From NCBI GenBank assembly GCA_963739305.1, contig CAVTZU010000036.1:11284-75283 (forward strand): a stretch of DNA of 64,000 bases, in the 5' to 3' direction. Positions 10,484-56,595 of this stretch are shown here, in pieces (positions within the stretch are counted from its first letter, which is position 1; each line of letters opens with the position of its first letter). The stretch is from Candidatus Bathyarchaeota archaeon. Its GTDB lineage: Archaea; Thermoproteota; Bathyarchaeia; Bathyarchaeales; Bathycorpusculaceae. Made by a program: the position numbers and the translations under genes. The notes below the pieces were generated by a model. The model ran no database searches. It saw nothing but the letters and a program-made list of their open reading frames with translations, and was not told where the DNA came from.

Positions 10484-10622
10484 ACTACATGCAAAACGCA
10501 TCAGAAACCACACCCAGAACCTCAAACAGCCCTCCCGAGCACCCCAAGCCCAGCACCGCACGCGAAAAAAAGGCCGGGGGGTAGGGTGTTTTAGAGCTGA
10601 AAACACTCAAAATCCATGTTGA
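10484..10622 (+). repeat. 139-bp dispersed element, copy 1
   Basis: 49-bp core 10564-10612 identical to 48800-48848; ends ACTACATG...CATGTTGA. Confidence 0.85.
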
Positions 10623-10629
10623 GTAGGCC

Positions 10630-12993
10630 CTAGAACGACCTGTGCTCAGTTCGCTTGATAATCTCGTCCTGCAACTCCTTGCTCAAATTAACAAAGTAAT
10701 CACTGAAACCCGCAACCCTCACCAACAAATCACCATACTTCTCCGGATGCCTCTGCGCCTCACGCAACGTCTCAGCGTTCACCACATTGAACTGAACATG
10801 ATGACCATCAAGCCGAAAATACCCACGAACAAGATTCGCCAACTTACTCAAACCCTCCTCGCTCTCCAACAACTCCGGCGCAAACTTCTGATTCAACAAA
10901 GTCCCACCCGTCCTCACATGATCAATCTTCGAAACCGACTTCACCACGGCCGTCGGACCCTCCCGGTCCGCACCCTGAACGGGCGAAACCCCCTCCGACA
11001 ACGGTTCACCCGCTCTCCGCCCGTCAGCCGAAGCTCCAACCATCTTGCCGAAATAGACGTGCACAGTCGTTGGCAACAAATTAACCCTATACTTGCCGCC
11101 CTTAGTGTTCGGACGCCCATCAATAGCACCAAAATAAGCCTCAAAAACCTCCCGCATCACCGAATCCGCGTAATCATCGTCATTCCCGTACTTCGGCGTC
11201 TTATTCAACAATCGCTGCCGCAGAACCTCGAAGTCCTTAAAATCAGCAGCAAGAGCCTTCAAAAAGTCACGCAACAGAACTTCCTTCCGATCATAAACAT
11301 GATACTTCAAAGCCGCCAAAGAATCTGTAACCGAACCCAGACCAACACCCTGAATATAATTCGTGTTATACCGAGCACCGCCATCATTGTAATCCTTACC
11401 CTTCGAAATGCAATCACTGATCAGAAGAGACAGAAACGGAACAGGAAGGACCTCAGCGTACAACCTCTCAATCACGTTGTTTCCTCTGACTTTCACATCC
11501 ACGAAATACTCAAGCTGCCTCTTGAAAGCGCCAAAAAGCTCCTCAAAAGACCCAAACTCACACGGATTTCCAGTCTCAACCCCAATCTTCTTGCCCGTAC
11601 GCGGGTCAACCCCATTGTTCAAAGCGACTTCAAGCACCTTCGGCAGATTGAAGTAGCCCGTAAGAATGTAACTCTCCTTCCCAAACGCGCCCGTCTCAAC
11701 ACAGCCACTCGCCCCCCCGTTCCTAGCATCCTCAATCGTCTTCCCCTGCCTCAACAACTCCTGAACAATAGCATCCGTGTTGAAAACAGACGGCTGCCCA
11801 AAACCCGTCCTAATAATCTCCAAAGCACACTTGAGAAAACTGTCAGGAGACCTCTTGCTGATCTGAACCATCGACCCAGGCTGCGGAATCCTCATCTCCC
11901 CAATAACATCCAGAATCAAGTAAGAAAGCTCATTCACCGCATCCGAACCATCCCCCTTCACACCGCCCAAGTTGACCAACGCAAAATCATTGTACGTGTT
12001 ACTCTCCTCAGCCGTAACCCCAACCTTCGGCGGCGCCGGCTGATTGTTAAACTTCACCCAGAACAACTCAAGAAGCTCCCTCGCCTTCTCCTTCGTCAAA
12101 CTCCCATCCTCAAGCCCCCTCTTGAAGAAAGGATACAAATGCTGATCCAGCCTCCCCGGGTTGAAAGCGTCCCACGGATTCACTTCCACGATGACACCCA
12201 AATGAATGAACCAATAATGCTGCAGAGCTTCCCAAAAATCCCGCGGAGCATACTTAGGAACCCGACTGCACACATCGACTATTTTCTTAAGCTCCTTCTT
12301 CCTCTTCGCACTCTTCTCTTTCCTAAGCAGCTGCTTCGCTTTCTCAACGTGACGCAATGCGTAGCAAATCAAGGCGTCAGCCGCAATTTGCATCGCCTTG
12401 AGCTCCTCCATCTTCTGGTGCGCGCTCGGATCAACCAGAAAATCCAAACTTTCCATGCTTTTTCTAATATCTTCTTTGAAGTCAACCAAACCTTTCCGAT
12501 AGATTTTGTCGTCCAACGCGGTGTGCCCAGGAGCCCTCTGTTCCAGAAACTCTGTAAAAACACCTGTGCCGTAAGCAGCTTTCCACTCATCAGACATTTC
12601 ATTGAAGACAACGTCCCTGATCGACCTGCCCTTCCAAAAAGGAATAACCCTCTCCCTGTACACCTTTCTGGTCTCCGCATCCACGCCGTAAGGAGTCTTC
12701 TTCCTCGCATCCAGAATCTCCAAGTCACCAAGCGAATGACAGCATATCTCAGGATAAGTCGGGACAAGCTTCGGTCCAGGCCCCCTTTCTCCAACGAGCA
12801 GCTCCCCATCCCCAACGCAAATGTGCTTGTTCTCGAGCAAATGCTTGAACGCCAGTGCTCTTGCAACAGGCGCAGAGACCCGACTCGCAGCATCGCTCTC
12901 ATAGAATTCGGTTATCAGAACAGCCCTCTCCGACGTGATGTATGGCTTCGTCCTGATACTCTCTTCCCTTAAGCGCCTAACTCTCTCGTTCAT
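10630..12993 (-). CDS. hypD: glycyl radical enzyme, trans-4-hydroxy-L-proline dehydratase type
   Basis: PTYPEICCH, EQRAPGH, WDAF, KFNNQPAPPKVG, ESxTYxDF, GCVE, LTGY, LPTT, RVAG(F): motifs recalled from clostridial HypD. Confidence 0.85.
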   Translation of the reverse strand: MNERVRRLREESIRTKPYITSERAVLITEFYESDAASRVSAPVARALAFKHLLENKHICVGDGELLVGERGPGPKLVPTYPEICCHSLGDLEILDARKKTPYGVDAETRKVYRERVIPFWKGRSIRDVVFNEMSDEWKAAYGTGVFTEFLEQRAPGHTALDDKIYRKGLVDFKEDIRKSMESLDFLVDPSAHQKMEELKAMQIAADALICYALRHVEKAKQLLRKEKSAKRKKELKKIVDVCSRVPKYAPRDFWEALQHYWFIHLGVIVEVNPWDAFNPGRLDQHLYPFFKRGLEDGSLTKEKARELLELFWVKFNNQPAPPKVGVTAEESNTYNDFALVNLGGVKGDGSDAVNELSYLILDVIGEMRIPQPGSMVQISKRSPDSFLKCALEIIRTGFGQPSVFNTDAIVQELLRQGKTIEDARNGGASGCVETGAFGKESYILTGYFNLPKVLEVALNNGVDPRTGKKIGVETGNPCEFGSFEELFGAFKRQLEYFVDVKVRGNNVIERLYAEVLPVPFLSLLISDCISKGKDYNDGGARYNTNYIQGVGLGSVTDSLAALKYHVYDRKEVLLRDFLKALAADFKDFEVLRQRLLNKTPKYGNDDDYADSVMREVFEAYFGAIDGRPNTKGGKYRVNLLPTTVHVYFGKMVGASADGRRAGEPLSEGVSPVQGADREGPTAVVKSVSKIDHVRTGGTLLNQKFAPELLESEEGLSKLANLVRGYFRLDGHHVQFNVVNAETLREAQRHPEKYGDLLVRVAGFSDYFVNLSKELQDEIIKRTEHRSF

Positions 12994-13914
12994 TTATCCT
13001 CCACCTATCTTCACGTTTAAACCGAAATCCTCGAGACTCAGCATAATCCTCTTCAACCGCTCATCCGACGGGGACTCGACCTTGTTCAACCCATATCTTC
13101 TACCTAGGCTCCTGTACTTCTCGATTCCGGCTCTGTGATAAGGAAGAACCTGTATGTCTCCAACTCCGTTCCTGCGCAAGAAATCGCCCATCTCAGCTAC
13201 GTTCTCGTTATCATCATTCACACCTGAAATTACCGGAAAACGAACCAGAATACTGCGACCGCTGTTCGCCAGTCTAGCGAAGTTTCCCAAAATCAACCTG
13301 TTCGAAACACCCGTATACCTCTTATGAACCCAATCATTCATGACTTTAAGATCATAAAGAAACAGGTCAACCTTTTCCACGACCTTGTCAAAATCCTCGC
13401 GAGATGCATACCCACAAGTCTCCAACGCTGTATGAATACCTTCTTTTTCGCATCCCTTCAGGAGCTCCTTCAAAAAATCGACTTGCATAAGCGGTTCTCC
13501 ACCAGAAAAAGTAACGCCTCCATTCGATTCCTCAAAAAAAACTTTGTCCTTGACAATTTCCTCCAAGACCGCCTCTACGCCCAGTTTCTTGCCAACAACT
13601 TCGATTGCACCGGTCGGGCACTTCCCATTACACTTGCCACACAGATCGCAAAGTTTCCGGTCTATCGACACCAGTCTCCTTGATAACGCCAGGGCTCCTC
13701 TCGGACAGGCTTTTGAACATTCTTGGCACCCAATGCACTTGTTCTTCCGGTACATCAACTCAGGCTTCAGAATCTGTCCTTCAGGGTTATGACACCACAA
13801 GCAACGAAGGGGACAGCCCTTCAAAAATATGGTGGAGCGGATGCCAGGTCCGTCGTCAACTGCATACCTCTTGATTTCAAAAACAAAACCCTCTGTCGTC
13901 GTTGCACTCACCAA
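12994..13914 (-). CDS. glycyl-radical activating enzyme (radical SAM with 2x[4Fe-4S] ferredoxin insert)
   Basis: DGPGIRST, GCPLRCLWCHNPE, two CxxCxxCxxxCP motifs, SGGEP, LPYH; abuts hypD. Confidence 0.93.
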   Translation of the reverse strand: MVSATTTEGFVFEIKRYAVDDGPGIRSTIFLKGCPLRCLWCHNPEGQILKPELMYRKNKCIGCQECSKACPRGALALSRRLVSIDRKLCDLCGKCNGKCPTGAIEVVGKKLGVEAVLEEIVKDKVFFEESNGGVTFSGGEPLMQVDFLKELLKGCEKEGIHTALETCGYASREDFDKVVEKVDLFLYDLKVMNDWVHKRYTGVSNRLILGNFARLANSGRSILVRFPVISGVNDDNENVAEMGDFLRRNGVGDIQVLPYHRAGIEKYRSLGRRYGLNKVESPSDERLKRIMLSLEDFGLNVKIGGG

Positions 13915-14125
13915 ACGTCGCCTGAATTGGAGCCTGAAATTGCCATAAAAACCTTATGCACTAGCTCTCATGCACTTTACGATTAGACGATGCATCAAGA
14001 AATCCTCATTCAACGGTCATCCAACGATAGTTTTTCCCTATGCTTTCGACAGGTTTAAGAATTGCCTCCTAAAGTAAAGAATAAAAGAGTGCAAATAGAA
14101 ACACTAGAATCACGAGGACAAACAT

Positions 14126-14380: not shown

Positions 14381-14567
14381 AAAACACTAATCCTCCTCGT
14401 TTTTGAATGATCCACCCAATCCGAAAAGAATAAGGCGGAAACGTTCGCGCTCCGTGAATTGCATTCTTGTCAAGTGAGCTTAGAAAATTGCGCTGAATTG
14501 GGCACAAGATATGCCGAAAGCCTTATTCAGAAAGTCAAGTATGTCCTTAAGCTAAGGAGGTAAACAC

Positions 14568-16264: not shown

Positions 16265-16310
16265 CTTTATATACTTTTCCGCACAACCTAACTCAAACGG
16301 TGAATACTCT

Positions 16311-36209: not shown

Positions 36210-36914
36210 CTAGCGCATCAGGTCCCGAACTAGCTTCACTACGTTTTTGATGACGTAATCGTTGATCATTTGCCCTTTCTTGCCGGTTGCTCTTGTTGGG
36301 TCGCCGATTACTCCACTCGGAAAGAGCTTCTCCGGATGAGGAGTAATTTCGAACCTCGGCATTTCTGGGTAGCTGCTTCTGCCCTTTGTCTTCACGAGGT
36401 CAGGTCTTATCGCCATGATTCTTGCGGTTTCGATTGTTCCGGCGTGTCCGTCCTTGTCGCTGAAGTGCTTACCCTTTAGTTCGTAGGCGAAGTCGTAGTC
36501 GCTGCAGACTATTATTCTCACCGTTTTCTCTGCCGGTTTGTTTTCGTTAGTCCAGATGACTTCTTGAGCTGCGAGCCTGAGTGCAGCCATGTGCGATTGG
36601 CCTGCGTGGCCGCTCATTATCAGGATTCGTTTGAACCCGTTGCGGACGAATTCTTCGAGGATGTCCTTGACGATCTTGTAGAGTGCTTGGAAGCTTATCG
36701 AGATTGTTCCTGGAAAGCCGCGTGTTGAGTTGCAGACGCCGTACCTCAAGGTTGGGGCGACGAGGCACCTGGTTTTCTTTGCAACCTCCGTTGCGACGAA
36801 TTCGGGTTGGATGCTGTCGGTCGCCAGGGGAAGGTGTTCGCCGTGTTCTTCGACGCTTCCGATTGGGAGTATGATGACCTTGTTTGTTTTGGCGGCCTTT
36901 TCTGCTTCATTCAT
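36210..36914 (-). CDS. creatininase/creatinine amidohydrolase family protein
   Basis: PIGSVEEHGEHLPLATD, SGHAG, DGHAGTIET, GVIGDP. Confidence 0.9.
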   Translation of the reverse strand: MNEAEKAAKTNKVIILPIGSVEEHGEHLPLATDSIQPEFVATEVAKKTRCLVAPTLRYGVCNSTRGFPGTISISFQALYKIVKDILEEFVRNGFKRILIMSGHAGQSHMAALRLAAQEVIWTNENKPAEKTVRIIVCSDYDFAYELKGKHFSDKDGHAGTIETARIMAIRPDLVKTKGRSSYPEMPRFEITPHPEKLFPSGVIGDPTRATGKKGQMINDYVIKNVVKLVRDLMR

Positions 36915-37185
36915 GCTCAGCTCATCGAACCAAAGGCACTCGTTTTTCTTTGACCGAGGGTCTTCGGGACTTGTTTTGTTTGTTCATTTTCATGTATTCT
37001 CCTGAGGTTTCAGTTGAGTGTTCCTACGTAATTTAGTTTATTATTTGCTCATTTGATAGTCGATGCTGTTTCTGTATATGTGTATTTGCGCTGAACTGTT
37101 GTGAAATAAGGTTTATTAAGATACCAGAGACTTCCTCCCTGAGCAACATCAAAACCACCCCATTAAGGGACTTGGAGAACAACAC

Positions 37186-40728: not shown

Positions 40729-41879
40729 TGAAGGTGTTGACGTTGCTCTTGCACGACGAGAGGTTCAGCGGCTGGACTCTGAGAGACAAGCTCACTCGCC
40801 ATCACTTTTCACTGCAGTACATGCAGCATTACAGGCAAAAGAACGCAGAGCCTCTGCTTTACACTTTCCATCAGCAAATCGACTCGAAGAAGACTTTCCG
40901 GATTGATAACGTGGGCACTGTGAAGGTCTTTCCGGTTGAGGTTCGTTTTCCGCCGTTTCTCCGCTTCGGCAACGATCACAACCCACGACAGATAACGAGA
41001 GAAATGCTTTCGGATCAGCCTGACCTGGTTCATTTTCACAATTACTACTTGGCTTCGTTTCCTTACGTGGCTGCTTTTGTCAAGAAGAAGCTGCGAAGAC
41101 CGTTGATTGCACAACTGCACGGGTACGATAATCGTTCACTTCGAAAATGGCTGTACCTGCCCTGCTTGCTGGCTTTGAGGCACGCGGATAAGATACTTTA
41201 CAGTTACGAGCCCGAGCGAGAAGTGTACCGAAAGCTAGGTGTCCTAGAAAGGGCGAAGAAGCTTCCTGTGCCTGGGGTTGATCCAGCGATCTTCAGGCCG
41301 GAGAGGCGGTTTCCGGCGCAGAGGTTCCTGTACGTTGGGAGGATTCCGGCTCCTGAAGCAGCGCATGGCGAGAAATCTCCGTATTTGCTGATTCAGATTT
41401 TGAAGAAGCTTCTTCACCGCTCGAAAGAGGTGGGGTTGGACATCGTGGGCGATGGTCCTGGGTTGCAGCGAACTCGTGAGCTCGTTAGGAGTCTTGGGAT
41501 CTCGGAGCATGTGGCGTTTCATGGTTACGTGCCGAACCGTGATCTGCCCAAGTATTATCATGCTGCGGCGTTGACTTTTTCGCCGATCCAGGTTTACGAT
41601 GTCGACGGATGGTTTGACGGTTCGATACAGGAGAGCCTCGCGTGTGGGACACCGGTGGCTGCCTTCAAGGCGTCGCGGAGAACGCCTTTGCATGGAACCT
41701 ATGGGTTCTTGTTATCGAATGACGCTGAGAGAGCGGCGGTTGAGCTGCACGGGCTGCTGAAGAGATCTGAGGATATGGATGAGGTTGCGGCGGAAGGTTC
41801 GCGTTTTGTGAGGGAGAATTGTTCTTGTGAAACCGTGGTTTCTGAGCTTGGGAAGACTTTGGAGAGTGTGTGCGGTTGA
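40728..41879 (+). CDS. glycosyltransferase family 4
   Basis: PDLVHFH, PGVD, FLYVGRI, IVGDGP, ESLACGTPV. Confidence 0.88.
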   Translation: MKVLTLLLHDERFSGWTLRDKLTRHHFSLQYMQHYRQKNAEPLLYTFHQQIDSKKTFRIDNVGTVKVFPVEVRFPPFLRFGNDHNPRQITREMLSDQPDLVHFHNYYLASFPYVAAFVKKKLRRPLIAQLHGYDNRSLRKWLYLPCLLALRHADKILYSYEPEREVYRKLGVLERAKKLPVPGVDPAIFRPERRFPAQRFLYVGRIPAPEAAHGEKSPYLLIQILKKLLHRSKEVGLDIVGDGPGLQRTRELVRSLGISEHVAFHGYVPNRDLPKYYHAAALTFSPIQVYDVDGWFDGSIQESLACGTPVAAFKASRRTPLHGTYGFLLSNDAERAAVELHGLLKRSEDMDEVAAEGSRFVRENCSCETVVSELGKTLESVCG

Positions 41880-42796
41880 AGTTGAGCATAATTGTTTGTG
41901 CCTATAATGAGGAGAAGTCGATTGGTCCTCTATTGGAGAACCTCCTGTTGCAAGATGTTCCTCCGGAGGTGGACGATCGTGAAATAGTCGTTGTTGCCTC
42001 AGGCTGCACGGACAGGACGGAAAGGGTTGTGGAGGAACGGGCTAGGATGGATCCGAGGATCAGGTTGATTTCCGAGCCTGAGAGGTCTGGTAAGGCTACG
42101 GCGTTGAACAAGGCGTTTGAGGCTTCGTCGGGTGGTTACATCGCTTTGATTCCGGCGGATGTTTTTCTCGCGGAGAACGCTTTGTTTAGTCTGCTTGTTC
42201 CGTTTAGAGATCGCGGTGTGTCGGCTGTGAGTGGTCGTCCGATGCAGGATCCTAATCGGGTTCCTGAGGGTTTCTCTGGTTACTTGGCGAACATGACTTT
42301 CAGGCTGTGGGCCAGGTTGATGTCGAAACTGAATGATAGGGGGGAGATGGCTCATTGCAGCGGTGAGTTTATGGCGATTAGGAGTGATGTGAAGACCGAT
42401 ATTCCGTGTGATTGCGCTGCGGACGATTCTTACATTGCTATCGCGGCGAAAAGGAAGGGCCACATCAAGTTTGCTTCGAAGGCTGTTTGTTACAATTTGA
42501 GGCCTTCAAACGTTGCTGATTACATCAATCAGAGACGAAGGTGGCTTTACGGGCATTTTCAGACGAAAAGGATGACTGGTGAGTACCCGACGGTGCTGGA
42601 CACCGTGGTCCTGTCGAAGCCTAGTGTGGCTTTGAGGGTTTTGGCTGAGGAGGTTACGGAGCAGCCGAGGACGGCTGGTTACCTGGCTTGTGCGATTCTG
42701 GTTGAAGGGGTTATTTATGCGCTGTCGATGTTTGATCGGCTTGTTAATCGGCGCTATGGTGTGTGGCCTGTGATCAAGTCTACAAAGTTTACGTGA
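41870..42796 (+). CDS. glycosyltransferase family 2 (processive type, QRRRW)
   Basis: AYNEE, GKATALN, ADD, QRRRW. Confidence 0.88.
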   Translation: MRLKLSIIVCAYNEEKSIGPLLENLLLQDVPPEVDDREIVVVASGCTDRTERVVEERARMDPRIRLISEPERSGKATALNKAFEASSGGYIALIPADVFLAENALFSLLVPFRDRGVSAVSGRPMQDPNRVPEGFSGYLANMTFRLWARLMSKLNDRGEMAHCSGEFMAIRSDVKTDIPCDCAADDSYIAIAAKRKGHIKFASKAVCYNLRPSNVADYINQRRRWLYGHFQTKRMTGEYPTVLDTVVLSKPSVALRVLAEEVTEQPRTAGYLACAILVEGVIYALSMFDRLVNRRYGVWPVIKSTKFT

Positions 42797-42807
42797 GTGT
42801 GCGTGTG

Positions 42808-43614
42808 ATGAGCAAACTGTGTGTTGTTGTTCCGACGTATAATGAGGCTGAGAACCTTCCAAGACTCGTTGGGCAGATCGAGGAGACGTTGCGTGGTTTG
42901 AGTTTCAAGCTGATAGTGGTTGACGACAGCAGCCCTGATGGCACGGCGAGAGTGGCTGAACAGTTGAATGCAGTGCACGGGAACATTCTCGTGAAGTCGA
43001 GACGTGCCAAGTCTGGTCTGGGTTCAGCTATTCAAGCAGGCCTCAGGGCTGCTCTGGAGATGGAGGACGTGGAGAGCGTCTTGACGTTGGACGCGGATTT
43101 GTCGCACGACCCTGGTGAGATTCCGAAGCTTCTCCGTGCGAGTCAGCAGGCGGATCTTGTTCAGGGAAGCCGGTACGTCGAAGATGGCAGAGCCGTTGGA
43201 TGGAGTTTCAGGAGAAGATTAGTTAGTTGTGTTGCTAACCTGGTTTGCAGGATGCTTCTGCGGATGTCGGTTCACGATTGCACGGGTAACTTCAGAGTCT
43301 ACTCGAGAAAGTGCGCTGAGGCGATTGTGAGTTCTGCGGTTGAGCGAGGTTTTGAATGGGTCGTTGAGGCTTTGTTTATTGCTAAGAAGCATCAGCTTGT
43401 TGTCAAGGAAGTGCCTATCGCCTTTGTGAACAGGAAAGATGGCGAGACCAAATTGAAGGGCAAGGACATCGTGAACTGGGCCTTCTTCACGGGGAAGAGC
43501 CTCTTTTCATTAAGACCGTTTTCCAGTATGCCCGTTCAGGTTAACAGTACTATTTGCAAGTCGTCGGCTCTGAGTGTGACGTTGACTGCGCCGCCTGCTT
43601 CTACGACGAAATAG
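42808..43614 (+). CDS. polyprenol-phosphate mannose synthase-like GT2
   Basis: PTYNEAEN, VDDSSPDGT, DADLSHDP, GSRY, DCTGNFR. Confidence 0.9.
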   Translation: MSKLCVVVPTYNEAENLPRLVGQIEETLRGLSFKLIVVDDSSPDGTARVAEQLNAVHGNILVKSRRAKSGLGSAIQAGLRAALEMEDVESVLTLDADLSHDPGEIPKLLRASQQADLVQGSRYVEDGRAVGWSFRRRLVSCVANLVCRMLLRMSVHDCTGNFRVYSRKCAEAIVSSAVERGFEWVVEALFIAKKHQLVVKEVPIAFVNRKDGETKLKGKDIVNWAFFTGKSLFSLRPFSSMPVQVNSTICKSSALSVTLTAPPASTTK

Positions 43615-47759: not shown

Positions 47760-48180
47760 TGCGCGCGGTGGGTGGCTGATGTTGGGTGTTACATGATTTG
47801 GAAGACGCGCATGACGACTGTGGCCATCGGATAAGAAAACCCCAGAGCACCAACCTGTCCGTGATCTCTTTCTCCACCACTCCACTCAATCTTTTCCTAG
47901 CATATATTTAAACAATTCAGTATGAAACATCTGAGCAAATCTTCTAGAACATTATCCCATACTTTCTATAAGATATATAAAACTACTTACCAAACCCGAT
48001 ATATGCACCGCCGTCCTGACAGGGATACACAACCTACTTCTCCAACAAAACACAACATTCAACGATCGAGGCATGTGTGAATTCTTTGCACGCACTTCGA
48101 AGCAACCTTAACATAGAAGCATAAACCCTAGAACCTGTAACAAACCAAACAAGGCAATAACCAACGGAAGCCAACCACAA

Positions 48181-48708
48181 TTGTCCAAAAAACCCACAGA
48201 AGACGAACTGGACCAACAAATAATCCACACCGTTGAAACGACAAAACCCGAAAAACTTGCCAGTTACCTCACCTCAAAATACGCCTTCTGGTACTGGACC
48301 ACCATAACACTCACGATCGCAACAACCATAGTCGTATTCACCGTGCCCGAAAACGCGTACCCACTCGTCTACATAAGATACTCTCTAGGCATAATATTCG
48401 TCCTCTGGCTCCCAGGCTACACCTTCATAAGAGCACTGTTTCCACAGCACCTTCCATTCACGAAAGGCCCAGCACACACACTCGAAACCTCTGAAAAAGA
48501 CCTAGACACAATCGAACGCATAGCTCAAAGCATCGGCATGAGCCTAGCCCTCGTCTCAATAACCGGCTTACTCCTAAACTACACACCATGGGGCATCCGC
48601 CTAACACCGATAATCCTAAGCCTCCTTCCACTGACCATAATCCTCGCCACAACAGCCATGATAAGAGAATACCAAACCAAACCTCATGAACAGATTCCAT
48701 CTCAATAA
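48181..48708 (+). CDS. DUF1616-like membrane protein
   Basis: LPGY..ALFP, ER..SIGMSLA, LNYTPWGI. Confidence 0.75.
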   Translation: MSKKPTEDELDQQIIHTVETTKPEKLASYLTSKYAFWYWTTITLTIATTIVVFTVPENAYPLVYIRYSLGIIFVLWLPGYTFIRALFPQHLPFTKGPAHTLETSEKDLDTIERIAQSIGMSLALVSITGLLLNYTPWGIRLTPIILSLLPLTIILATTAMIREYQTKPHEQIPSQ

Positions 48709-48719
48709 ACCAACAAACT

Positions 48720-48858
48720 TCAACATGCAAAACCGCACAAAAACCACGCAAACCCCAACAAACAGCCCCCCACAAACACCCGCCAACAGTTCTACGCAAG
48801 AAAAAAAGGCCGGGGGGTAGGGTGTTTTAGAGCTGAAAACACTCAAAAACCATGCTGA
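48720..48858 (+). repeat. 139-bp dispersed element, copy 2
   Basis: TCAACATG...CATGCTGA ends; 49-bp core identical to copy 1. Confidence 0.85.
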
Positions 48859-49066
48859 CCAGTCCTTCATACGCACCTACGTTTCAGTCCAATTCACCTT
48901 TCTCAAGAACACGCCTGTTTCGCCGCAAGCAACAAGCAACGTTTATATCAAGAACTTCCCCACAAACCAACTCCAGAAACCACACAGCTCAACCCGTCAC
49001 AATTAAACATCCGTAGTCACAACATATCCTCTTCAAACGTGAAAACTCATCAGGACGTGACCGCAG

Positions 49067-50008
49067 GTGCCCCTGAGAACCATCAAAAAAGAAACCGCCC
49101 AAGCATTATCGCTAGAGTGGGCCCTGCACGTAAAGAACTACCAACTCACCCTCGACAAGGACACGTGCGTCGGCTGCCAAATCTGCACGTTAGCCTGCCC
49201 GAAAGAAGCAGTCAAAACCACAAAACCCACAAAGACTCAACAACAAAAAACACAGAAAGCCACAGTCGACATCGACCTCGCCAAATGCAACTTCTGCGGA
49301 ATATGCGACGCAGCCTGCCCCTACGGCGCCATCAAACTAACAATCGACGGAAAACACGTACTCTCCGTCGTTGAAAAACAATGTTTCCCCTCACTAACAC
49401 GAGACATCCAAGCCGACCCAAACAAGTTCCCAACAAAACACAAAGAAGCCGAAGACGCCTGTCCACTCGGCCTCATCAAAGTCACATACACGACACCCGA
49501 CGGCAAGCCAACCGAAAACCCAACCAGCCTCGCCGAACCCGACCGAAGCTGGTACAAAACCAACGTCAACCTCGACAAAGACCACTGCCCATGCTGCACC
49601 GTCTGCAAAACCAAACTCCCCGACGGAGCAATCCACGTACACAAATTCATAGCAGGAAAACTAAAGATCAACCCGGCAAAATGCCCAGACGGATGCACAC
49701 TCTGCCTTGACGCCTGCCCAATCACAGGAACACTCTACCTGTCACATCAAGACAACAAGGTGCATGTAAACGAAGCCTTCTGCGTCTACTGTGGAGCGTG
49801 CAAGCTAGCCTGCCCGGTTGACGAAGCGTTAGAACTGAAGAGAACAAGCATCAACCACACACCTGTACGCTCAGGAGCATGGAACAAAGCCCTCGAACGC
49901 CTAACCTCACCGACAGACCTAACAAAAGAACTCAAGACCAAAGGCTCCCAAAAAGCGCGTGAGGCAGTCAGAAAACGAACGATGCCGGAGGACCAGAAAC
50001 TTGCCTAA
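49067..50008 (+). CDS. polyferredoxin (FwdF/MvhB-like)
   Basis: Multiple CxxCxxCxxxCP motifs. Confidence 0.85.
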   Translation: MPLRTIKKETAQALSLEWALHVKNYQLTLDKDTCVGCQICTLACPKEAVKTTKPTKTQQQKTQKATVDIDLAKCNFCGICDAACPYGAIKLTIDGKHVLSVVEKQCFPSLTRDIQADPNKFPTKHKEAEDACPLGLIKVTYTTPDGKPTENPTSLAEPDRSWYKTNVNLDKDHCPCCTVCKTKLPDGAIHVHKFIAGKLKINPAKCPDGCTLCLDACPITGTLYLSHQDNKVHVNEAFCVYCGACKLACPVDEALELKRTSINHTPVRSGAWNKALERLTSPTDLTKELKTKGSQKAREAVRKRTMPEDQKLA

Positions 50009-52058
50009 AAAGTCCTCCAAACAGAAGCCCCCAGCAGCCAAAAAACCGACAAAACCCCGGAAAAAAGCCCTTTCTACCAAACCTCAGAGCCCCCGCATCG
50101 GAGTGTTCGTCTGCCAATGCGGCACCAAAATAGCCAGCGTCATCAACGTCCAGGAAGTAACAGACTACGCCAACACCCTGCCAAACGTCGTACACGCGGA
50201 AAACATGAATTACCCCTGCAGCCGCCAAGGCCAAGAAACCATAAAAACCACGATCAAAACCCAAAAACTCAACCGCGTCATCGTCGCAGGCTGCTCACCA
50301 AGACTCTACGAACCAACCTTCCAAACATGCGTCTCCCAAGCCGAGCTGAACCCTTGGCTCTTCGAAATGGCCAACATCCGTGAATTCGCTTCTTACTGCC
50401 ACAAAACAACACCAACAGAAGCAACCGAAAAAGCCAAAGACACCGTCAGGATAGCCGTCGCAAAAGCCCGCCTCCTCGAACCGTTAAAACCCATCGAACT
50501 CCCCATAACCAAAAAAGTCCTAGTCATCGGCGGAGGCATAGCCGGAATCAACGCTGCCCTAGACCTAGCAGACATGAACTTCAAAGTCTACATGGTAGAA
50601 AAAACCGAAACCATCGGCGGCTATATGGCTCTTTTGGACAAAACGTTCCCAACCCTCGACTGCAGCATATGCATCGAAGGACCGAAAATGGTCGACGTAG
50701 GAAGACATCCGAACATAGAGATAATCAGCTACGCCGACATCCAGAAAGTCACGGGCAACATCGGCAACTTCAACGTCAAAATACACAAAAACCCCCGCTA
50801 CGTCATCGCCGCAAACTGCACCGGATGCGGAGAATGCCGAGACGCCTGCCCCATCGAATACCCAAACTACGCCGACATGTACCTCGGCGTGAGAAAAGCA
50901 ATATCCATCCCGTTCGACCAAGCCGTCCCACTCACCCACACGATCAACCGGGACTACTGCATCGAATGCTACAAGTGCGTCGACGCATGCGGAGCCCGAC
51001 AAGCGATCGACTTCGACCAAAAACCAGAAGAAATCACAATCAACGTCGGAGCCATAATACTCAGCACCGGCTACGACATGTACAACCCCAAAGACCTAGA
51101 ATGGACCGGCTACGGAAAACACCAAAACGTCTTCACAGCACTAGAATTTGAAAGACTCATACTCGCAGCCGGCCCAACCGGCGGCAAAGTCGTCCGCGCC
51201 AGCGACGGCCAAAAACCTCACAGCGTAGCCTTCATACAATGCGTCGGCTCACGAGACATCAATCACTACGAATACTGCTCGAGCTTCTGCTGCATGTACA
51301 CCATCAAACACGCCGTCATGCTCAAAGAAAAATACCGCGAAGCTATCGAAGTCAACGTCCTATACAACGACATGAGAAGCAACTTCAAAGGCTATGAAGA
51401 ATTCTTCAACCGCGCCCAAAAATCAGGAGTCAAATTCACACGCGTCAAACTCGAAAAGCGCCGCGTAATCGAAGACCCCAAAACCAACAACCTCACGGTC
51501 CACGCAGAAACAGAGGACGGAAAAACCGTCACCGTACACGCCGAAATGGTGGTCCTCGCAAACGCAGCAATCCCAACACAGACCAACCCTGAAATCGCCA
51601 AAATCCTCGGTCTGCAATTGGGCAAAGATGGGTTCTTCATCGAATGCCAACCCAAAATCCGCCCCACCGACACCTCCGTACCAGGAATCTTCATGGCGGG
51701 CGCATGCCAAGGACTGAAAGATATCCCCTACAGCGTAGCTCAAGGAAGCGCCGCTGCAGCACAAGTCGCATCCGTCCTGAGCAGAGACTCATGGCCCGTC
51801 GAGCCACTGGTAGCCCAGATAAACGAGGACCTCTGCAGCGCCTGCGGAGTATGCGAACCAGCCTGCAGCTACCACGCAATCAGCCTGCAAAGAAAAGGAG
51901 ACAAATCGATTGTAAAGATCGCCGACGGCCTGTGTCGCGGATGCGGCATATGCAGCTCAGCCTGCCCGATGGACGCTGTCAAAATGCCCAATTACTCCGA
52001 CGGCCAGATCGTCGCCCAGATCCAAGCGGTTACAGAGAAAAAGGTGCCCCCCAAGTGA
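50001..52058 (+). CDS. hdrA: heterodisulfide reductase subunit A-like flavoprotein
   Basis: GVFVCQCG, AGCSP, NIRE, GGGIAG, KTFPTLDCSIC, QCVGSR, CSSFCC, C-terminal ferredoxin; TTG after GGAGG. Confidence 0.93.
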   Translation: MPKKSSKQKPPAAKKPTKPRKKALSTKPQSPRIGVFVCQCGTKIASVINVQEVTDYANTLPNVVHAENMNYPCSRQGQETIKTTIKTQKLNRVIVAGCSPRLYEPTFQTCVSQAELNPWLFEMANIREFASYCHKTTPTEATEKAKDTVRIAVAKARLLEPLKPIELPITKKVLVIGGGIAGINAALDLADMNFKVYMVEKTETIGGYMALLDKTFPTLDCSICIEGPKMVDVGRHPNIEIISYADIQKVTGNIGNFNVKIHKNPRYVIAANCTGCGECRDACPIEYPNYADMYLGVRKAISIPFDQAVPLTHTINRDYCIECYKCVDACGARQAIDFDQKPEEITINVGAIILSTGYDMYNPKDLEWTGYGKHQNVFTALEFERLILAAGPTGGKVVRASDGQKPHSVAFIQCVGSRDINHYEYCSSFCCMYTIKHAVMLKEKYREAIEVNVLYNDMRSNFKGYEEFFNRAQKSGVKFTRVKLEKRRVIEDPKTNNLTVHAETEDGKTVTVHAEMVVLANAAIPTQTNPEIAKILGLQLGKDGFFIECQPKIRPTDTSVPGIFMAGACQGLKDIPYSVAQGSAAAAQVASVLSRDSWPVEPLVAQINEDLCSACGVCEPACSYHAISLQRKGDKSIVKIADGLCRGCGICSSACPMDAVKMPNYSDGQIVAQIQAVTEKKVPPK

Positions 52059-54556
52059 CCGCGCAATTAGCTTCACAGCCTCAGAAAGCAGTCGCCGAGC
52101 CACGCATCGGCGTCTTCGTTTGCTACTGCGGCCTCAACATCGCCGGCACAGTGGACGTTGAAGACGTAGCCGAGTACGCACGCAAACTTCCCGGAGTCGT
52201 CTACGTCAAAACAAACCGCTACACATGCGCCGACCCTGGTCAAGAAGAAATCAGAAAAGGAATCAAAGAACACAAGTTAGATCGCGTCGTCGTCGCCGCG
52301 TGCTCACCCAGAATGCACGAACCAACCTTCCGTAGAACGGTCTCAGAAGCCGGCCTAAACCCATTCGTCTACGAGATGGCCAACATCCGCGAGTTCTCAT
52401 CCTGGTGCCACCAAGGCACGCCAAAAGAAGCAACCGAGAAAGCCAAAGAACTCGTGAAAATGGCTGTAGCCAAGGTGAGACTCCTTGAGCCCCTTGACGT
52501 CATCGAGGTTCCAGTCATCAACAGGGCCCTCGTCGTCGGAGCAGGCGTCGCCGGTGCAAGCGCAGCCGTTGACTTGGCCGAGATGGGTTATCAAGTCTAC
52601 CTGGTCGAGCGCTCCGAAATAATCGGGGGACACATGGCTCAACTGGGCAAAACGTTTCCCGTCTTCGAGTGCTCAAACTGTCCCCAACAGATCCACTGCC
52701 CAAGGTTCTCGTGCGTAGCCACACGAATCGGCGCCGCCGCCGTTCAACCAAAGATCAACCTGCTCGCCTACTCCGACGTAACACACGTCGAAGGAGTCAT
52801 CGGAAGCTACAAAGTCACCGTTGCAAGGAAACCGAGGTTCGTCGACGAGTACAAGTGCACAAGCTGCGGAAAATGCTCCGAAGCCTGCCCCGTTGAGACA
52901 GCTAGCAAGTTTGACGCAGGCGTAAGGAAGCGGAAAGCCATCTACCTGCCGTTCTCAGACGCGAGTCCCAACACCTATACCGTCGACAAAGAGGCATGCC
53001 TATTCTTCAGAGACGGAAGCTGCAGGAAGTGCCAGGAAACGTGCCCCGTCGGCGCCGTCGATTTCGAGCAGAAGCCAACGGAGGAAAAGCTAGACGTCGG
53101 ATGCATGGTCGTTGCCACGGGCTACGACGTCTACGAACCCCTCGACCTACCGAATTACGGCTACGGCAAACACAAGAACGTCGTTACCGCATTGCAGCTC
53201 GAGAGAATCATTGATTCCGGCACTCAGATCTTGGGAGAGCTTAGAAAGCCTTCCGATGGCAAGATGCCTGAAAGCCTGACGTACATTCAATGCGTCGGCT
53301 CACGAGACATAAACAAGTTCGAGTACTGCTCGGGCTTCTGCTGCATGCTCACACTCAAGAGCGCCGTCTTCCTGAAAGAGAAGTATGGTGACCAACTGAA
53401 AATCAACGTGCTCTACACCGACATGCGCGCAAACAGAAAAGGTTACGAAGAACTCTTCAATAAAGCACAGAACCTCGGCATAAGCTTCGTCCGCGTCAAG
53501 CTGACTAACAAGAAAGTGACCGAAGACCCAACCACAAAGAAGCTCACGGCATATGCCGAGAAGGAAAATGGCGAGCCCGTTCAAGTGGAGAGCGACATGA
53601 TCGTACTAGCAACGGCCGCCGTTCCCAGTCAAGGCTCAGAAGAAGTCGCAAGAGTCTTCAACATCAGTCGCGGCAGCGACGGTTTCTTCATGGAAAGCCA
53701 CCCCAAGCTCAAACCGATCGACACGCCCTCAGACGGCGTCTACGTTGCCGGAGGCTGCCAAGGACCAAAGGACGTTCCCTACAGCGTTTCACAAGGTTTA
53801 GGAGCAGCTGCAAGGGCCGCAACAATTCTGGCAAAGCCAACGTATAAAATCCAACCGATCGTAGCCGTTGTCGACCCAGTAAAATGCCGAAACGCGAAAG
53901 TCAAGTGTGGACTCTGCGCGAAAGCCTGCCCCTACGGTGCAATACGCGCGCCAGATGGCCAGATTGCAATAACCGAGAGCGCAATGTGTCACGGCTGCGG
54001 CACATGCGTTGCAGAGTGTCCAGCCGATGCGATCACCCAGAAACATTTCACAGACGCACAGATCATCTCGCAGATTAGAGCGGCTTTGGAAACAGAACCC
54101 GAAGGAAAAATCCTCGCGTTCCTGTGCAACTGGTGCAGCTACGCCGGAGCAGATCTGGCGGGCACGAGCAGGTTCGAGTACCCTCCCGTGATTCGGCCGA
54201 TCAGAGTCATGTGTTCAGGAAGGGTAGACCGAGATTTCGTGCTAGAAGCGTTCAGGCTCGGCGCCGGGATGGTAATGGTCGGCGCTTGTCACTTACCCTA
54301 CGACTGCCACTACATCAGCGGAAACTACCGAATGAAGGCAAGAATGGACGCGCTGGCGCCGATGCTGCAGAAGCTCGGAATGAGCCCTGAAAGGCTGCGA
54401 GTTGAGTATGTCTCGGCGGCCGAAGGGATCAAGTTTGCCGAGGTCGTCCGGGAGATCGATGGACAGATGCGGGCGCTGGGCAAGGAAAAGATCGTTGCTG
54501 AGAACGCCAAGATGCGTCCAATCTTGGAAAACATGCTGAAGAGAAAGCAGCAGTAG
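52055..54556 (+). CDS. hdrA: HdrA fused to C-terminal MvhD
   Basis: Second HdrA (GTG 52055 overlaps the previous stop) followed by FLCNWCSYAGAD..RVMCSGR..CH..DCHY (MvhD). Confidence 0.92.
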   Translation: MTAQLASQPQKAVAEPRIGVFVCYCGLNIAGTVDVEDVAEYARKLPGVVYVKTNRYTCADPGQEEIRKGIKEHKLDRVVVAACSPRMHEPTFRRTVSEAGLNPFVYEMANIREFSSWCHQGTPKEATEKAKELVKMAVAKVRLLEPLDVIEVPVINRALVVGAGVAGASAAVDLAEMGYQVYLVERSEIIGGHMAQLGKTFPVFECSNCPQQIHCPRFSCVATRIGAAAVQPKINLLAYSDVTHVEGVIGSYKVTVARKPRFVDEYKCTSCGKCSEACPVETASKFDAGVRKRKAIYLPFSDASPNTYTVDKEACLFFRDGSCRKCQETCPVGAVDFEQKPTEEKLDVGCMVVATGYDVYEPLDLPNYGYGKHKNVVTALQLERIIDSGTQILGELRKPSDGKMPESLTYIQCVGSRDINKFEYCSGFCCMLTLKSAVFLKEKYGDQLKINVLYTDMRANRKGYEELFNKAQNLGISFVRVKLTNKKVTEDPTTKKLTAYAEKENGEPVQVESDMIVLATAAVPSQGSEEVARVFNISRGSDGFFMESHPKLKPIDTPSDGVYVAGGCQGPKDVPYSVSQGLGAAARAATILAKPTYKIQPIVAVVDPVKCRNAKVKCGLCAKACPYGAIRAPDGQIAITESAMCHGCGTCVAECPADAITQKHFTDAQIISQIRAALETEPEGKILAFLCNWCSYAGADLAGTSRFEYPPVIRPIRVMCSGRVDRDFVLEAFRLGAGMVMVGACHLPYDCHYISGNYRMKARMDALAPMLQKLGMSPERLRVEYVSAAEGIKFAEVVREIDGQMRALGKEKIVAENAKMRPILENMLKRKQQ

Positions 54557-54585
54557 CCGAGAAGCTCGGCTAGGGGTTACTCAAC

Positions 54586-55524
54586 GTGGTTTTTGACAGT
54601 TTTGGCTCACAAACGGAAATAGGTGAGGAAGTCAGCTTGGATGCTATGGCTGTCAAGATCAGAAAACTGCGTCCGTCGGATCGTGCCGACATAGCGGAGA
54701 TTTCTCGACACGTCTGGGAAGGACACGATTACCTACCGTCGGTCGCTGAAGAATGGCTCAAGGACAAGAATTGCTACTTCTACGGCGTCGTGGCCGACGA
54801 TCACGTCGTAGCCGTCGGCAACCTACATCTGCTGGAGAACGGACGAACCGGCTGGATGGAAGGGTTAAGGGTCCATCCTGACTACAGGGGCAAAGGATAT
54901 GCAAACGAGATGACCCTCTACCTAGTTCGAAAAGCAGAAGACCTGGGCGTTCGTCGCCTTCGATACACCACGTCCGACGAGAACGCTGCTTCCCTGAAGC
55001 TCGCAAAGATGGCCGGGTTCTCAAGGCTTCTGGAAATGGCCGTGCTCTGGAGCGCCAACCCCAAAACAGCTCCTCCCGTGCAAGGCTGTTATCCAATAGA
55101 GAGAACGACACCTGCAAGAATCTACGAGTTGTTACAGACTAATCCCAGCATTGTTCCCCGCGGAATTCTGATTTACGACTGGAAGGCCGTCGACAGTGAA
55201 CTCCAAAATCTCGAAGAGATCGGCAAAACCCACGGGTTCTACGTAGCGCTCAAGAACGGAAAAATAGATTCCTTCTCGTTCGGCCATCTCAGACAAGAGT
55301 TTAACAGTACCTGGAGTTTTACAACGTACGCTCGCGATTCCGAGGGCTTCTTGGCTCAGCTTTCCTACAGCTTAACGAACGCTCTGAAACTAGGCTGCAA
55401 TTGGATCATGTTCACGTTTGAAAAAAGATTCGAAGAGGCAGCAAAGCAAGTGGACCTGCAATCCGAAGAGCAAGATTTGGGTCATCTCGTTCTGCTTGAA
55501 AAGCAGATTCAGCCGGCAAATTGA
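54586..55524 (+). CDS. GNAT-family acetyltransferase
   Basis: DYLP, EGLRVHPDYRGKGYA, NAASLKLA..GF; true start may be 54637 or 54646. Confidence 0.85.
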   Translation: MVFDSFGSQTEIGEEVSLDAMAVKIRKLRPSDRADIAEISRHVWEGHDYLPSVAEEWLKDKNCYFYGVVADDHVVAVGNLHLLENGRTGWMEGLRVHPDYRGKGYANEMTLYLVRKAEDLGVRRLRYTTSDENAASLKLAKMAGFSRLLEMAVLWSANPKTAPPVQGCYPIERTTPARIYELLQTNPSIVPRGILIYDWKAVDSELQNLEEIGKTHGFYVALKNGKIDSFSFGHLRQEFNSTWSFTTYARDSEGFLAQLSYSLTNALKLGCNWIMFTFEKRFEEAAKQVDLQSEEQDLGHLVLLEKQIQPAN

Positions 55525-55606
55525 CGTAGCATGAAGGGCGCTCTCTGAACCCAGTCGCACAAAGCTTTTATCTGGTTGAATCAAATTCATCCACAGAGGT
55601 TAAAAA

Positions 55607-56261
55607 ATGGAATTAGAATCTGCAAAAAACATCGGCGGCGTAGGTGCAATACTACTTGTCATAGGATCTTTAGCAATATTTGCAAATTCCTACGGAGGAC
55701 TACTTTCCCTCGCAGGCATAATACTGGTACTTATCGGGTTGAAAGGAATGGCCGACAACTACAAGGAAGGAGGAATAATCAACAATGCCCTGTATTCAGT
55801 TGTCACGGCAATCGTCGGTGGAGTGGTTTCCATAGGCGTACTTGTTGCGTCCGTCCTCGTATTCTTATCCAACGCTCCTGACTGGCTGAAAACGCCGCTT
55901 CAAGCTGGGGATTGGCAGGGATTATCGAACGCCGTTCAGCAACACATAAGCATCGAACGACTTCAGCTCTCTGTGGACTCTCATCGGATCCGTTATAATA
56001 GCTATCGTCGTGCTGTTCGTATTCATCGTGATCACGACGTTCTTCTTCAGAAGGTCCCTAGGATTGTTATCGAAGAAGAGCAACGTTGGGCTTTTCGGAA
56101 CAACAGGCTTGCTCTTTCTGATAGGTGGCTTGCTAACAATAGTGCTAATCGGATTCGTCCTGATCTGGATAAGCTGGATAATGCTGGCCGTAGCCTTCTT
56201 CCAAGTAAAAGCCCTTCCTCAACCACAGCCACCCCCTCCAGCTCCCACGACTCAACTTTGA
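55607..56261 (+). pseudogene. DUF996-like membrane protein with a one-base frameshift
   Basis: AK.IGGVGAIL...G.ILVLIG; the TM-rich second half (LFGTTGLL..IG.LL.I.LIG...AVAFF) is in the +1 frame from about 55949. Confidence 0.7.
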
Positions 56262-56456
56262 TGAAAGCCAAACAGAAACGGCAACCACCGCCCCTGTCTT
56301 TTCTTTTTCTTTGTCACATTGGACCAGAGGTGCGAACGCTATCAAAGTTGTTATGTTTGATGGAAACTCAAAGATCTCACGCTACATGATTGAGCTAGTT
56401 TGTTATTTGCTGAAGTGCAAATTCAGCTTCCTTCTGAGTCCTCGCTTAGGGACTGG

Positions 56457-56595
56457 TCAACATGGTTTTTGATTGAAAAACAGTCTAAAACACCCTACCC
56501 CCCTACCTTTTTTTCTTGCACGGTTCTGGGGTTGAGCCTTTCGTGAGGGCGTTGGTTGATTCTTGCTGTGGTTTTCGCTTGGATCTGCATGTTGA
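56457..56595 (-). repeat. 139-bp dispersed element, copy 3 (inverted, hairpin altered)
   Basis: Perfect TCAACATG/CATGTTGA ends; GGGGGGTAGGGTGTTTTAGA and A7 tract on the minus strand. Confidence 0.8.

Follow-up and report, generated by a model that had tools for sequence, protein, structure and literature searches.

In vertebrate mitochondrial DNA, the strand that is left single-stranded undergoes C>T and A>G changes, and an A+C-rich strand stands opposite a G+T-rich one, with a gradient that follows the exposure time; in immunoglobulin somatic hypermutation, the mutations cover 1.5–2 kb from a fixed start in cis. Oriented DNA signals are represented by Chi, read by RecBCD or AddAB and occurring about once per 5 kb, and by the nick sites of HUH enzymes (oriT, rolling-circle origins, and the ends of IS91 and Helitron elements). 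The element described here, a repeat with a 139-bp core, was found in a 64,000-nucleotide stretch of DNA from Candidatus Bathyarchaeota archaeon (assembly GCA_963739305.1, contig CAVTZU010000036.1, positions 11,284 to 75,283 of the forward strand; hereafter, the window). Copies of it head one-sided tracts in which one strand is rich in A+C, and we put at about even the chance that the element is a polar cis site, from which the bottom strand would time and again become single-stranded and be mutated.

Each of the known systems is matched only in part. As in the case of Chi, the element is an oriented signal on one side of which one strand would be single-stranded for kilobases, decaying with distance, and the geometry fits in that the 3′ end of the bottom strand points at the element; Chi, however, is an 8-mer, whereas the signal of the element comprises ~70 nt and occurs 30–40 times per genome. 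Chi is not known from archaea, nor is a compositional tract known to result from it. The HUH nick sites likewise have an inverted repeat or hairpin beside a site of one-way 5′→3′ strand peeling, with possible read-through into the flanks and no target duplication, but the hairpin of the present element is dispensable. In vertebrate mitochondrial DNA, the asymmetry extends over the whole genome and is linked to the replication origins, whereas here dozens of repeat-headed tracts of 1.5–3.5 kb lie in a 2.3-Mb chromosome, with a polarity that misfits displacement synthesis starting at the element. Similar to transposable elements of the miniature inverted-repeat type (MITEs) and repetitive extragenic palindromic (REP) sequences, the element is short, non-coding, and intergenic, with tens of copies that may point either way with respect to genes, a copy number that varies by species (3 to 42) and at non-orthologous sites; unlike them, it has no target duplication, its inverted 8-mers are internal, and neither an insertion sequence (IS) with the same ends nor Y1/RAYT or TnpB accompanies it. 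We know of no MITE or REP that heads a kilobase-scale tract of strand-specific mutation. Kataegis at resected breaks (PMC6786661 and PMC3521656) is also kilobase-scale, strand-specific damage in single-stranded DNA arising from 5′→3′ resection. Kataegis and somatic hypermutation are, however, somatic and eukaryotic, with a strand switch at the break or a dependence on transcription and AID, whereas the tracts described here are germ-line, one-sided, located at fixed recurring sites, and affect both C and A. None of these nearest analogues is a dispersed repeat heading fixed one-sided tracts in a cellular chromosome. In the literature searched, nothing was found on miniature inverted repeats or strand asymmetry in Bathyarchaeia, and for archaeal MITEs, intergenic repeats, and terminators the works listed were only general ones on MITEs.

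The top strand of the element is defined as that reading TCAACATG ... A7 ... GGCCGGGGGGTAGGGTGTTTT ... CCATGTTGA, i.e., with TCAACATG on the left and CATGTTGA on the right, and left and right are used below in this sense. The features of the window that belong to the element and its tracts are as follows.

10476..10636, + strand: copy 1, variant A, core 10484-10622 (covariance model 112 bits, E 6e-34)
10564..10612, + strand: conserved right module of copy 1, consisting of A7, the G-run GGCCGGGGGGTAGGG, and a T-run with the hairpin
10640..12317, + strand: skewed tract to the right of copy 1 (A+C 0.638 over 10640-12140)
48711..48875, + strand: copy 2, variant A, core 48720-48858, right module 48800-48848 (covariance model 117 bits)
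47818..51917, + strand: skewed tract surrounding copy 2 and extending to its right (A+C 0.662)
56437..56606, − strand: copy 3, variant B, long-form subfamily, core 56457-56595, without a tract (covariance model 125 bits)
56338..56713, − strand: long-form repeat around copy 3, homologous to copies on other contigs
54564..54612, − strand: partial right end (model positions 122-171; 14.9 bits, E 8.7e-4; 34 nt at 82%)

The three copies of the core had been proposed in an earlier note, made from the letters of the window, and checking of the sequence confirmed all of them at 10484-10622 (+), 48720-48858 (+), and 56457-56595 (−). That observation as a whole stands, apart from the copy number and the hairpin of copy 3. 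Copies 1 and 2 indeed share 49 identical bases (10564-10612 = 48800-48848), including the hairpin GTGTTTT-N7-AAAACAC (10586-10606 in copy 1), and the inverted 8-mers are, as described, perfect only in copy 3, the left one of copy 1 being ACTACATG and the right one of copy 2 being CATGCTGA. The likeness reported to extend past the right 8-mer recurs in the genome-wide alignment, in which CCAGTCC or GTAGGCC comes next, and the A+C patches noted beside copies 1 and 2 but not at copy 3 agree with the A+C content over 1.5 kb rightward, in element orientation, of 0.638, 0.678, and 0.479, respectively (the right flank of copy 3 is 54900-56400 of the window, with A+C 0.521 when read on the + strand). 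The 20-mer GGGGGGTAGGGTGTTTTAGA common to the copies occurs 3 times, and 0 times in 100 shuffles. The number three falls short, since the genome contains 31 copies and the window also holds the partial right end as a fourth; copy 3 has not simply lost its hairpin, as had been supposed, but is of variant B, the more frequent one, characterized by a local inversion of the 3′ arm. A remnant suspected near 7184 proved to be an exact 12-mer equal to the left junction of copy 3 (2 matches against 0.01 expected), at which the covariance model finds no significant element (E 7).

Copy 1 has convergent genes on its two sides and directly adjoins the stop codon (10630-10632) of one of them, which encodes a PFL-like glycyl-radical enzyme; its right module is followed by CCATGTTGA and GTAGGCC, to 10629. 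The PFL-like gene is antisense to the element, and its 3′ two thirds lie within the tract of copy 1. Copy 2 begins 12 nt past the stop codon of a full-length DUF1616 gene and ends ~200 nt upstream of a ferredoxin-type gene, and its tract contains at least three genes, all sense to the element.

The right flanks of the copies were compared over the whole genome (2.32 Mb in 36 contigs, 47% G+C, 97% complete, with an estimated contamination of 7.8%), using crude calls of open reading frames (ORFs) made for this analysis as genes and reading the genomes of relatives in part. Measured 20–1520 nt past the right end, the mean A+C content of the 31 copies was 0.594, against 0.5016 at random intergenic points taken in random orientation as the control (standard deviation of means of 31, 0.0088), and the largest of 20,000 control resamples reached 0.541. 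The right flank was at or above 0.58 in 18 of the 31 copies, with 1.65 expected and a maximum of 9 among the resamples. In the oriented profile, the left flank is flat at 0.51–0.53, and the right flank stands at 0.62–0.66 over 0–1.5 kb, declines to 0.55 at 2.5 kb, and reaches the baseline near 4 kb, the onset of the skew being within ~150 nt of the left end of the element. When patches were defined from composition as 500-nt windows with A+C ≥0.62 or ≤0.38, 136 of them were found, with a total length of 142 kb (6% of the genome); in each of the 21 that abut a copy, the A+C-rich strand is the top strand of the element. Twelve of the 18 patches of at least 1.9 kb carry a copy, 0–1.1 kb from their oriented left end. 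In the relative G001, taken as a control (3 weak copies; first 400 kb), 0.18% of the windows lie beyond 0.65/0.35, against 1.55% here, and in the sister species G003 and G004 the right flank reaches at least 0.63 in 8 of the 18 copies with enough flank.

The skew is independent of gene direction and seated at synonymous third positions. Of the genes lying rightward of copies with a tract, the 14 on the same strand as the element have a third-position A+C of 0.59–0.94 and the 12 on the opposite strand one of 0.14–0.39, the genome mean being 0.536 (standard deviation 0.099). In the PFL-like gene (10630-12993), third-position G+T rises from 0.69 at the 5′ end to 0.87 beside the element, and four orthologues from relatives without the element at that place have 0.30–0.57. 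On the coding strand of this gene, which is the bottom strand, the changes counted at sites where all four relatives agree are A>G at 110/552 and C>T at 61/321, against G>A at 14/369 and T>C at 12/333; at third positions, the respective rates are 65% and 51% against 6% and 16%. The ferredoxin-type gene (49067-50008), which is sense to copy 2, is the mirror image of the PFL-like gene: its third-position A+C is 0.856, and the changes are T>C at 13/67 against C>T at 1/93, and G>A at 10/78 against A>G at 6/132. Its orthologues have third-position A+C of 0.852 in G004, in which the element is also present upstream of the gene, 0.678 in G005, and 0.51–0.52 in G001, G002, and G008. By these comparisons, the skew is derived and mutational, consisting of C>T and A>G changes of the bottom strand that are absent from the orthologues of relatives. 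As a separate observation, 271 genes lie by more than 30% in skewed windows, and their sense third-position A+C exceeds 0.6 in 169 and is below 0.45 in 74; the roughly twofold excess of sense-A+C-rich tracts may stem from the 0.53 baseline or from the opposite arrangement being selected against.

The 139-bp unit forms the central part, or core, of a non-coding repeat of 165–185 bp. From the left, ~10 weakly conserved bases precede (T/C)CAACATG, which is followed by a left half of ~75 nt that is fixed in length, low in conservation, and high in A+C, with the islands AACCAC and CAGTACTNTG. Then come an invariant A6-7, a G-run (GGCC/GGTA-GGGGGG-TAGGGTG), TTTT, and a segment of ~10 nt with two versions, each the local inversion of the other; the version having the hairpin, variant A, is present in 10 of the 26 aligned copies and the one lacking it, variant B, in 16, and both occur in all three species. 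The right end is CAAAA(N)CCATGTTGA followed by CCAGTCC or GTAGGCC, and G003 and G004 have both motifs in tandem (ACAGTCC-ATACT-GTAGGCCTAC). Because conservation continues ~10 nt to the left and 9–26 nt to the right of the inverted 8-mers TCAACATG/CATGTTGA, these are internal rather than terminal, and the left one is direct, not inverted, in some copies and in the diverged relatives in G001 and G002. Eight copies including copy 3 constitute the long form, in which homology extends a further 35–117 nt to the left and 50–110 nt to the right and ends by GCGCGC tracts; it has a TATA-like box 18 nt before TCAACATG and, in 4 of the 8 copies, a T5 run ~40 nt beyond the right end. The extra parts at copy 3 (~117 nt left and ~110 nt right) are common to the copy on contig C7, with 84.5% identity over 381 nt and partial sharing with the copies on C23 and C17, and the homology stops beside GCGCGC-like tracts. 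Alternating (GC)3-5 tracts number 899 in the genome, one of them at 10403-10413 of the window, and their occurrence near copies (14/31) does not differ significantly from that at random intergenic points (10.9 ± 2.7). Local inversions occur in several species both in the 3′ hairpin arm (columns 128-140 of alignment A2, CTGAAAACA versus TGTTTTTCA) and in the left 8-mer (TCAACATG versus CATGTTGA), and these two polymorphisms suggest recurrent template switching at quasi-palindromes.

The 18 copies that are neither long-form nor degenerate all have a right-flank A+C of at least 0.566, and they comprise nine of variant A and nine of variant B. Since half of the tract-bearing copies are thus of variant B, the presence of a tract is independent of the hairpin, and a link between hairpin integrity and skew, raised as a check in the earlier note, is not borne out, tracts being equally present in the two variants. 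Comparison of the tract-bearing copies with the long-form consensus revealed that their left half has changed by T>C at 59%, G>A at 23%, and G>C at 30%, against C>T at 12% and A>G at 14%, whereas in the right module T>C amounts to 6% and G>A to 2%. The left half is diverged, equal in length, and A/C-rich because it has been mutated in the direction of the tract. The element thus sits inside its own tract, and the right module withstands the mutation pressure, which amounts to strong purifying selection on the block of A7, G-run, T-run, and CCATGTTGA.

An all-against-all BLAST among the patch edges without an element disclosed a second, compact, related family, having the core GTTAC-N-CAACATTACAAAAAACGTTAC-A-run-G-run and sharing CAACAT with the first. 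Its profile gave 10 hits, 7 of which have a right flank of at least 0.62; eight of the ten are given below, and among these eight, 7 have a tract of at least 0.62 on the same side.

C18:63988-64197, + strand: family 2
C11:126867-127081, + strand: family 2
C11:149719-149917, − strand: family 2
C20:145539-145724, − strand: family 2
C4:53823-53885, − strand: family 2
C15:86426-86498, + strand: family 2
C28:106821-106868, − strand: family 2
C17:9220-9274, − strand: family 2

The second family heads 3 of the 6 large patches without a family-1 copy (C4:52.4 kb, C15:85.9 kb, and C28:104 kb), and eroded right ends resembling family 1 are found at further patch edges. Of the 55 patches of at least 1 kb, 25 are headed by a member of one or the other family. 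A k-mer motif search over 37 patch edges without an element returned only A/C-rich words. The window itself has three patches, 6318-8217, 36618-37117, and 41418-43117, that are G+T-rich on the + strand and have no recognizable element of either family at their oriented start; near 8495-8510, at a distance of ~280 nt from the first of these patches, the − strand has CCATTGATGTTGAAG beside GCGCGCGC.

The repeat family is confined to one genus of Bathyarchaeia. Iterated nhmmer located the 31 copies, which are distributed over 18 contigs and of which 29 cover at least 120 of the 153 profile positions, and a covariance model with sequence only (R1) returned 31 copies here, 22 in G003, and 42 in G004. 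The search across related genomes that the earlier note had proposed thus gave tens of copies in two sister species, and in four others (G001, G002, G005, and G007) 3–9 weak, diverged copies each by the same model; lone weak matches (E 7e-6 to 9e-4) were obtained in 4 of the 59 other genera sampled from the same taxonomic family. The exact 20-mer is absent from public contigs, with one genome per species covered. A 16-mer scan of public genome contigs gave mostly chance bacterial matches and was multi-copy only in Bathyarchaeia metagenome-assembled genomes, and 24 16-mer matches on viral contigs represent no real element, the model matches there being at most 57 nt and centered on the pattern itself. 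The flanks of 20 G003/G004 copies map elsewhere in the present genome, away from its own copies, and the locus upstream of the ferredoxin-type gene, shared with G004, is probably an exception. Presence and absence of copies therefore differ between relatives. Exact empty sites could not be demonstrated because the relatives are only ~70% identical: at the syntenic pair G003 L169 versus C5:33.3-33.5 kb, the intergenic region is too diverged to place boundaries, and among the joints listed for DNA contigs of four runs, none skips the element. In the same contigs, the depth is 10-20-fold higher over both elements and contigs break at the element edges, as expected of a repeat.

By the crude ORF calls, the copies are intergenic; the left neighbor gene is co-oriented with the element in 13 of 30 copies, and the right neighbor faces it in 15 of 31 and runs away from it in 16. 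The T7 of the bottom strand accordingly follows a gene end in 15 of the 31 copies, and the right neighbor starts there in the other 16. Of the terminator role suggested earlier, generality is thus not upheld, and the element may terminate transcription where it follows a gene, for example at copy 1.

The geometry and the mutation spectrum, i.e., the footprint made up of the tracts, the uniform orientation (21/21), and changes of the deamination type, favor a cis site for nicking or loading, one of the interpretations offered in the earlier note; the others, a structured RNA, a MITE, and a general terminator, are not favored. In the predicted mechanism, the G/T-rich right module would act in cis as a polar start site, from which the top strand would be removed or peeled off 5′→3′, repeatedly, over ~1.5–3.5 kb rightward of the module, in the simplest form by resection or unwinding that sets out from a nick in the top strand or from a one-ended entry; a one-ended break, relaxase/HUH-type peeling, or a travelling helicase-nuclease that undergoes a Chi-like switch would serve as alternatives. 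The bottom strand would be left single-stranded and its C and A deaminated, and refilling would fix bottom-strand C>T and A>G changes, equivalent to G>A and T>C of the top strand, with the long-run outcome of an A+C-rich top strand irrespective of local gene direction. Removal of the top strand in the 5′→3′ direction fits because the 3′ end of the bottom strand points at the element, and exposure would be greatest beside it and decay rightward. Deamination of C and A in single-stranded DNA, giving C>T and A>G, is established chemistry. Long single-stranded DNA and resection have been tied to strand-coordinated mutation clusters in PMC3521656 and PMC6786661. Replication does not account for the sign, since forks or displacement synthesis running rightward from the element would expose the top strand, for which the opposite sign is predicted. 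The data show the repeat family and its non-coding character, the one-sided tracts with their orientation, the origin of these by mutation at synonymous sites and its spectrum, and the selection acting on the right module; we infer that the element causes its tract through a single-stranded intermediate and a nick or resection step. A bolder version, which we regard as possible but rather doubtful, is a hypermutation machine, in which a helicase or nuclease, possibly with a deaminase, starts at the A7/G-run and rewrites one strand over 1.5–3.5 kb; with the same reservation, it would operate at two dozen or more sites per genome and would have reshaped ~6% of the chromosome, housekeeping genes included.

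Several observations weigh against the polar cis site. Thirteen of the 31 copies have no tract, namely all 8 long-form and 5 degenerate ones, and several of these long-form copies have a perfect core; the core alone is therefore insufficient, or the tractless copies are young, and in the long form the extra right flank may halt the process. Moreover, 30 of the 55 patches of at least 1 kb have no recognized element of either family. A weak A+C shoulder of 0.58–0.63 exists within 150 nt on the left side; in G003 and G004, the left-flank mean is 0.55 and a strong tract is present in only 8 of the 18 copies examined. The patch thresholds were picked after the data had been seen, although the flank test is independent of them. 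The ancestral states in the two gene comparisons are the agreement of four relatives in an unrooted comparison, an assumption that the extreme composition in this genome supports. No enzyme motif stood out clearly among the bases neighboring the mutated ones, in a test that is confounded by codon position. Finally, all mechanistic steps are deduced from composition.

Before rival explanations of the skew are weighed, other identities of the element itself may be considered. A small-protein gene was rejected: only 12 of 26 copies have an ATG, variability per codon position is flat (1.01/0.93/1.07 bits) without periodicity, and the frame is not kept in the sister species, where the ATG–TAG phase is 0 in 5, 1 in 9, and 2 in 3 of 19 G003/G004 copies (no TAG motif in 2) and in-frame stops are present. 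The ATG-to-TAG distance is exactly 96 nt in 21 of 26 copies, and the A/C-rich composition leaves all three frames of the element fairly open. The structured-RNA interpretation lacks support, as the RNAalifold consensus amounts to −1.86 kcal/mol for the top and −1.21 for the bottom strand, 0 compensatory pairs are present, and Rfam gave 0 matches to the element at the gathering score or at E up to 5.

As to a mobile element, the proposal of a dispersed, MITE-like element holds for the dispersal, now seen to be genus-restricted and at non-orthologous sites, and fails for the defining features of a MITE, there being no target duplication, no terminal position of the 8-mers, and no IS with the same ends. 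The reported lack of a target-site duplication extends to all 31 aligned copies and to 20 copies of G003/G004, and that of a transposase-bearing relative to the whole genome, in which no long-range pairs of the two ends occur; no full-length IS with these ends was found, with room left by the 36-contig assembly for an unassembled IS. Two DDE_Tnp_1 genes in the genome have ends unrelated to the element; one of them encodes the 444-aa transposase of a 1.5-kb IS at C4:5353-6878 (locus L171 818-2343) with the 21-bp terminal inverted repeat TAGTCTTACTTTGTCACATTA. Y1 (PF01797) and TnpB (PF07282) had 0 matches in the genome, with controls positive in 6 and 8 genomes, which, together with the single hairpin in just 10 of 26 copies, sets the element apart from an IS200/IS605-derived palindrome-associated transposable element or omega-RNA. 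A reverse transcriptase (RVT_1) is absent from the 97%-complete genome, with the control positive in 3 genomes, and no PIF1-type helicase was found; the profiles Y2_Tnp and Helitron_like_N gave no match, an uninformative result because the controls were silent in every genome. Some ends of the element resemble the integron attC consensus, which we take to be RYYYAAC/GTTRRRY, but there is no L-box pairing and copies are solitary on many contigs, and attC was rejected, no integrase search having been made. A relation to CRISPR, prompted by GTTTTAGAGCT, was also rejected, as the assembly has no array, its sole regular repeat being a 3-unit one on C20.

As regards the skew, the causality might be reversed, a mobile element inserting in fixed orientation at the origin of pre-existing tracts, for instance by targeting single-stranded DNA, as transposons of the IS200/IS605 group do with an orientation bias. 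The patches without an element, the copies without a tract, and the different loci occupied in different species, as for a mobile element, all speak in its favor. We nevertheless hold it to be unlikely, because a passive passenger would not be expected to keep its right module constant under strong mutation pressure, because two families with the CAACAT/A-run/G-run core both head tracts and eroded elements lie at other patch edges, because the left half of the element has itself mutated in the tract direction, and because no Y1 or TnpB was found. Improbable to a similar degree is transcription-associated mutagenesis, caused either by an outward promoter with read-through or by a strong terminator (the bottom-strand T7) ending heavy leftward transcription. 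Promoter-proximal hypermutation spans 1.5–2 kb, and the tract geometry resembles it; in addition, the A7/T7 is invariant, the long form has a TATA-like box and a T5 run that could stop the transcript and thereby explain the tractless long-form copies, and the sign seen would be that expected on the non-template strand of leftward transcription. Rightward transcription, however, predicts the opposite sign (C>T on the top, non-template strand), and leftward transcription would need to be both strong and, at roughly every second locus, antisense (14 same- versus 12 opposite-strand genes), no consistent promoter exists upstream of the copies, and the ribosomal-protein cluster, presumably highly transcribed, has a third-position A+C of ~0.54, equal to the genome mean.

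Error-prone copying toward the element, in which the bottom strand is resynthesized as cDNA or in repair with G·T-type misincorporation and replaces the resident strand, would also yield the spectrum, inasmuch as A>G and C>T on the bottom strand may equal G·T/G·U mispairing on a nascent bottom strand, and coverage that is highest at the 5′ end of a transcript would decay rightward, as observed. With RVT_1 missing and no polymerase or integrase linked to the copies, we think it very improbable. Still less credence, close to none, is given to an ordinary MITE, intergenic terminator, or small-protein gene with skew nearby by coincidence: the dispersed, short, intergenic nature of the family, its inverted 8-mers, the 96-nt ATG–TAG distance, and the 15 of 31 copies that follow a convergent gene would suit it, but it is contradicted by the flank skew, ~10 standard deviations from the control, by the one-sided profile, and by the orientation agreement of 21/21, and the sparse ATG (12/26), the flat codon-position variability, the frame not kept in G003/G004, and the lack of a target duplication or matching IS count against it.

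If the polar cis site is causal, it would be a new kind of cis signal, in which a repeat determines how fast and in which direction the adjoining few kilobases mutate, and it would explain the extreme local strand-skew patches in Bathyarchaeia. The synonymous composition and even amino-acid usage of core genes would then be driven by a neighboring repeat, third positions consisting to 85–94% of two bases, and an archaeal DNA-end-processing or editing activity with a defined start would be indicated, one that a 70-nt bait could make accessible to affinity capture. The hypermutation machine, if real, would be a natural counterpart of engineered mutators in which a deaminase is tethered to a helicase or polymerase. 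In practical terms, such tracts distort codon-usage, phylogenetic, and horizontal-gene-transfer-detection analyses of uncultured archaea.

Some further features of the window lie apart from the element. Paralogous Lhr-type large helicases, with DEAD, Helicase_C, WH_Lhr, and DEAD_assoc domains, are encoded near both of its ends (1271-4255, −, and 60961-63864, −). The 260-aa ORF at 55607-56389 (+) matches DUF996 in its first 85 residues only (profile 1-53 of 138), and the remainder resembles non-coding read-through; the genome has no paralogue, and the DUF996 gene probably ends earlier or is frameshifted. Downstream of an epimerase gene, 175 nt at 47828-48002 (+) recur twice in G005 with 79–81% identity and, over 51 nt, in G002 with 94% identity, being better conserved than the adjoining coding DNA; with no tRNA or Rfam match, this segment could be a small RNA or a small gene.

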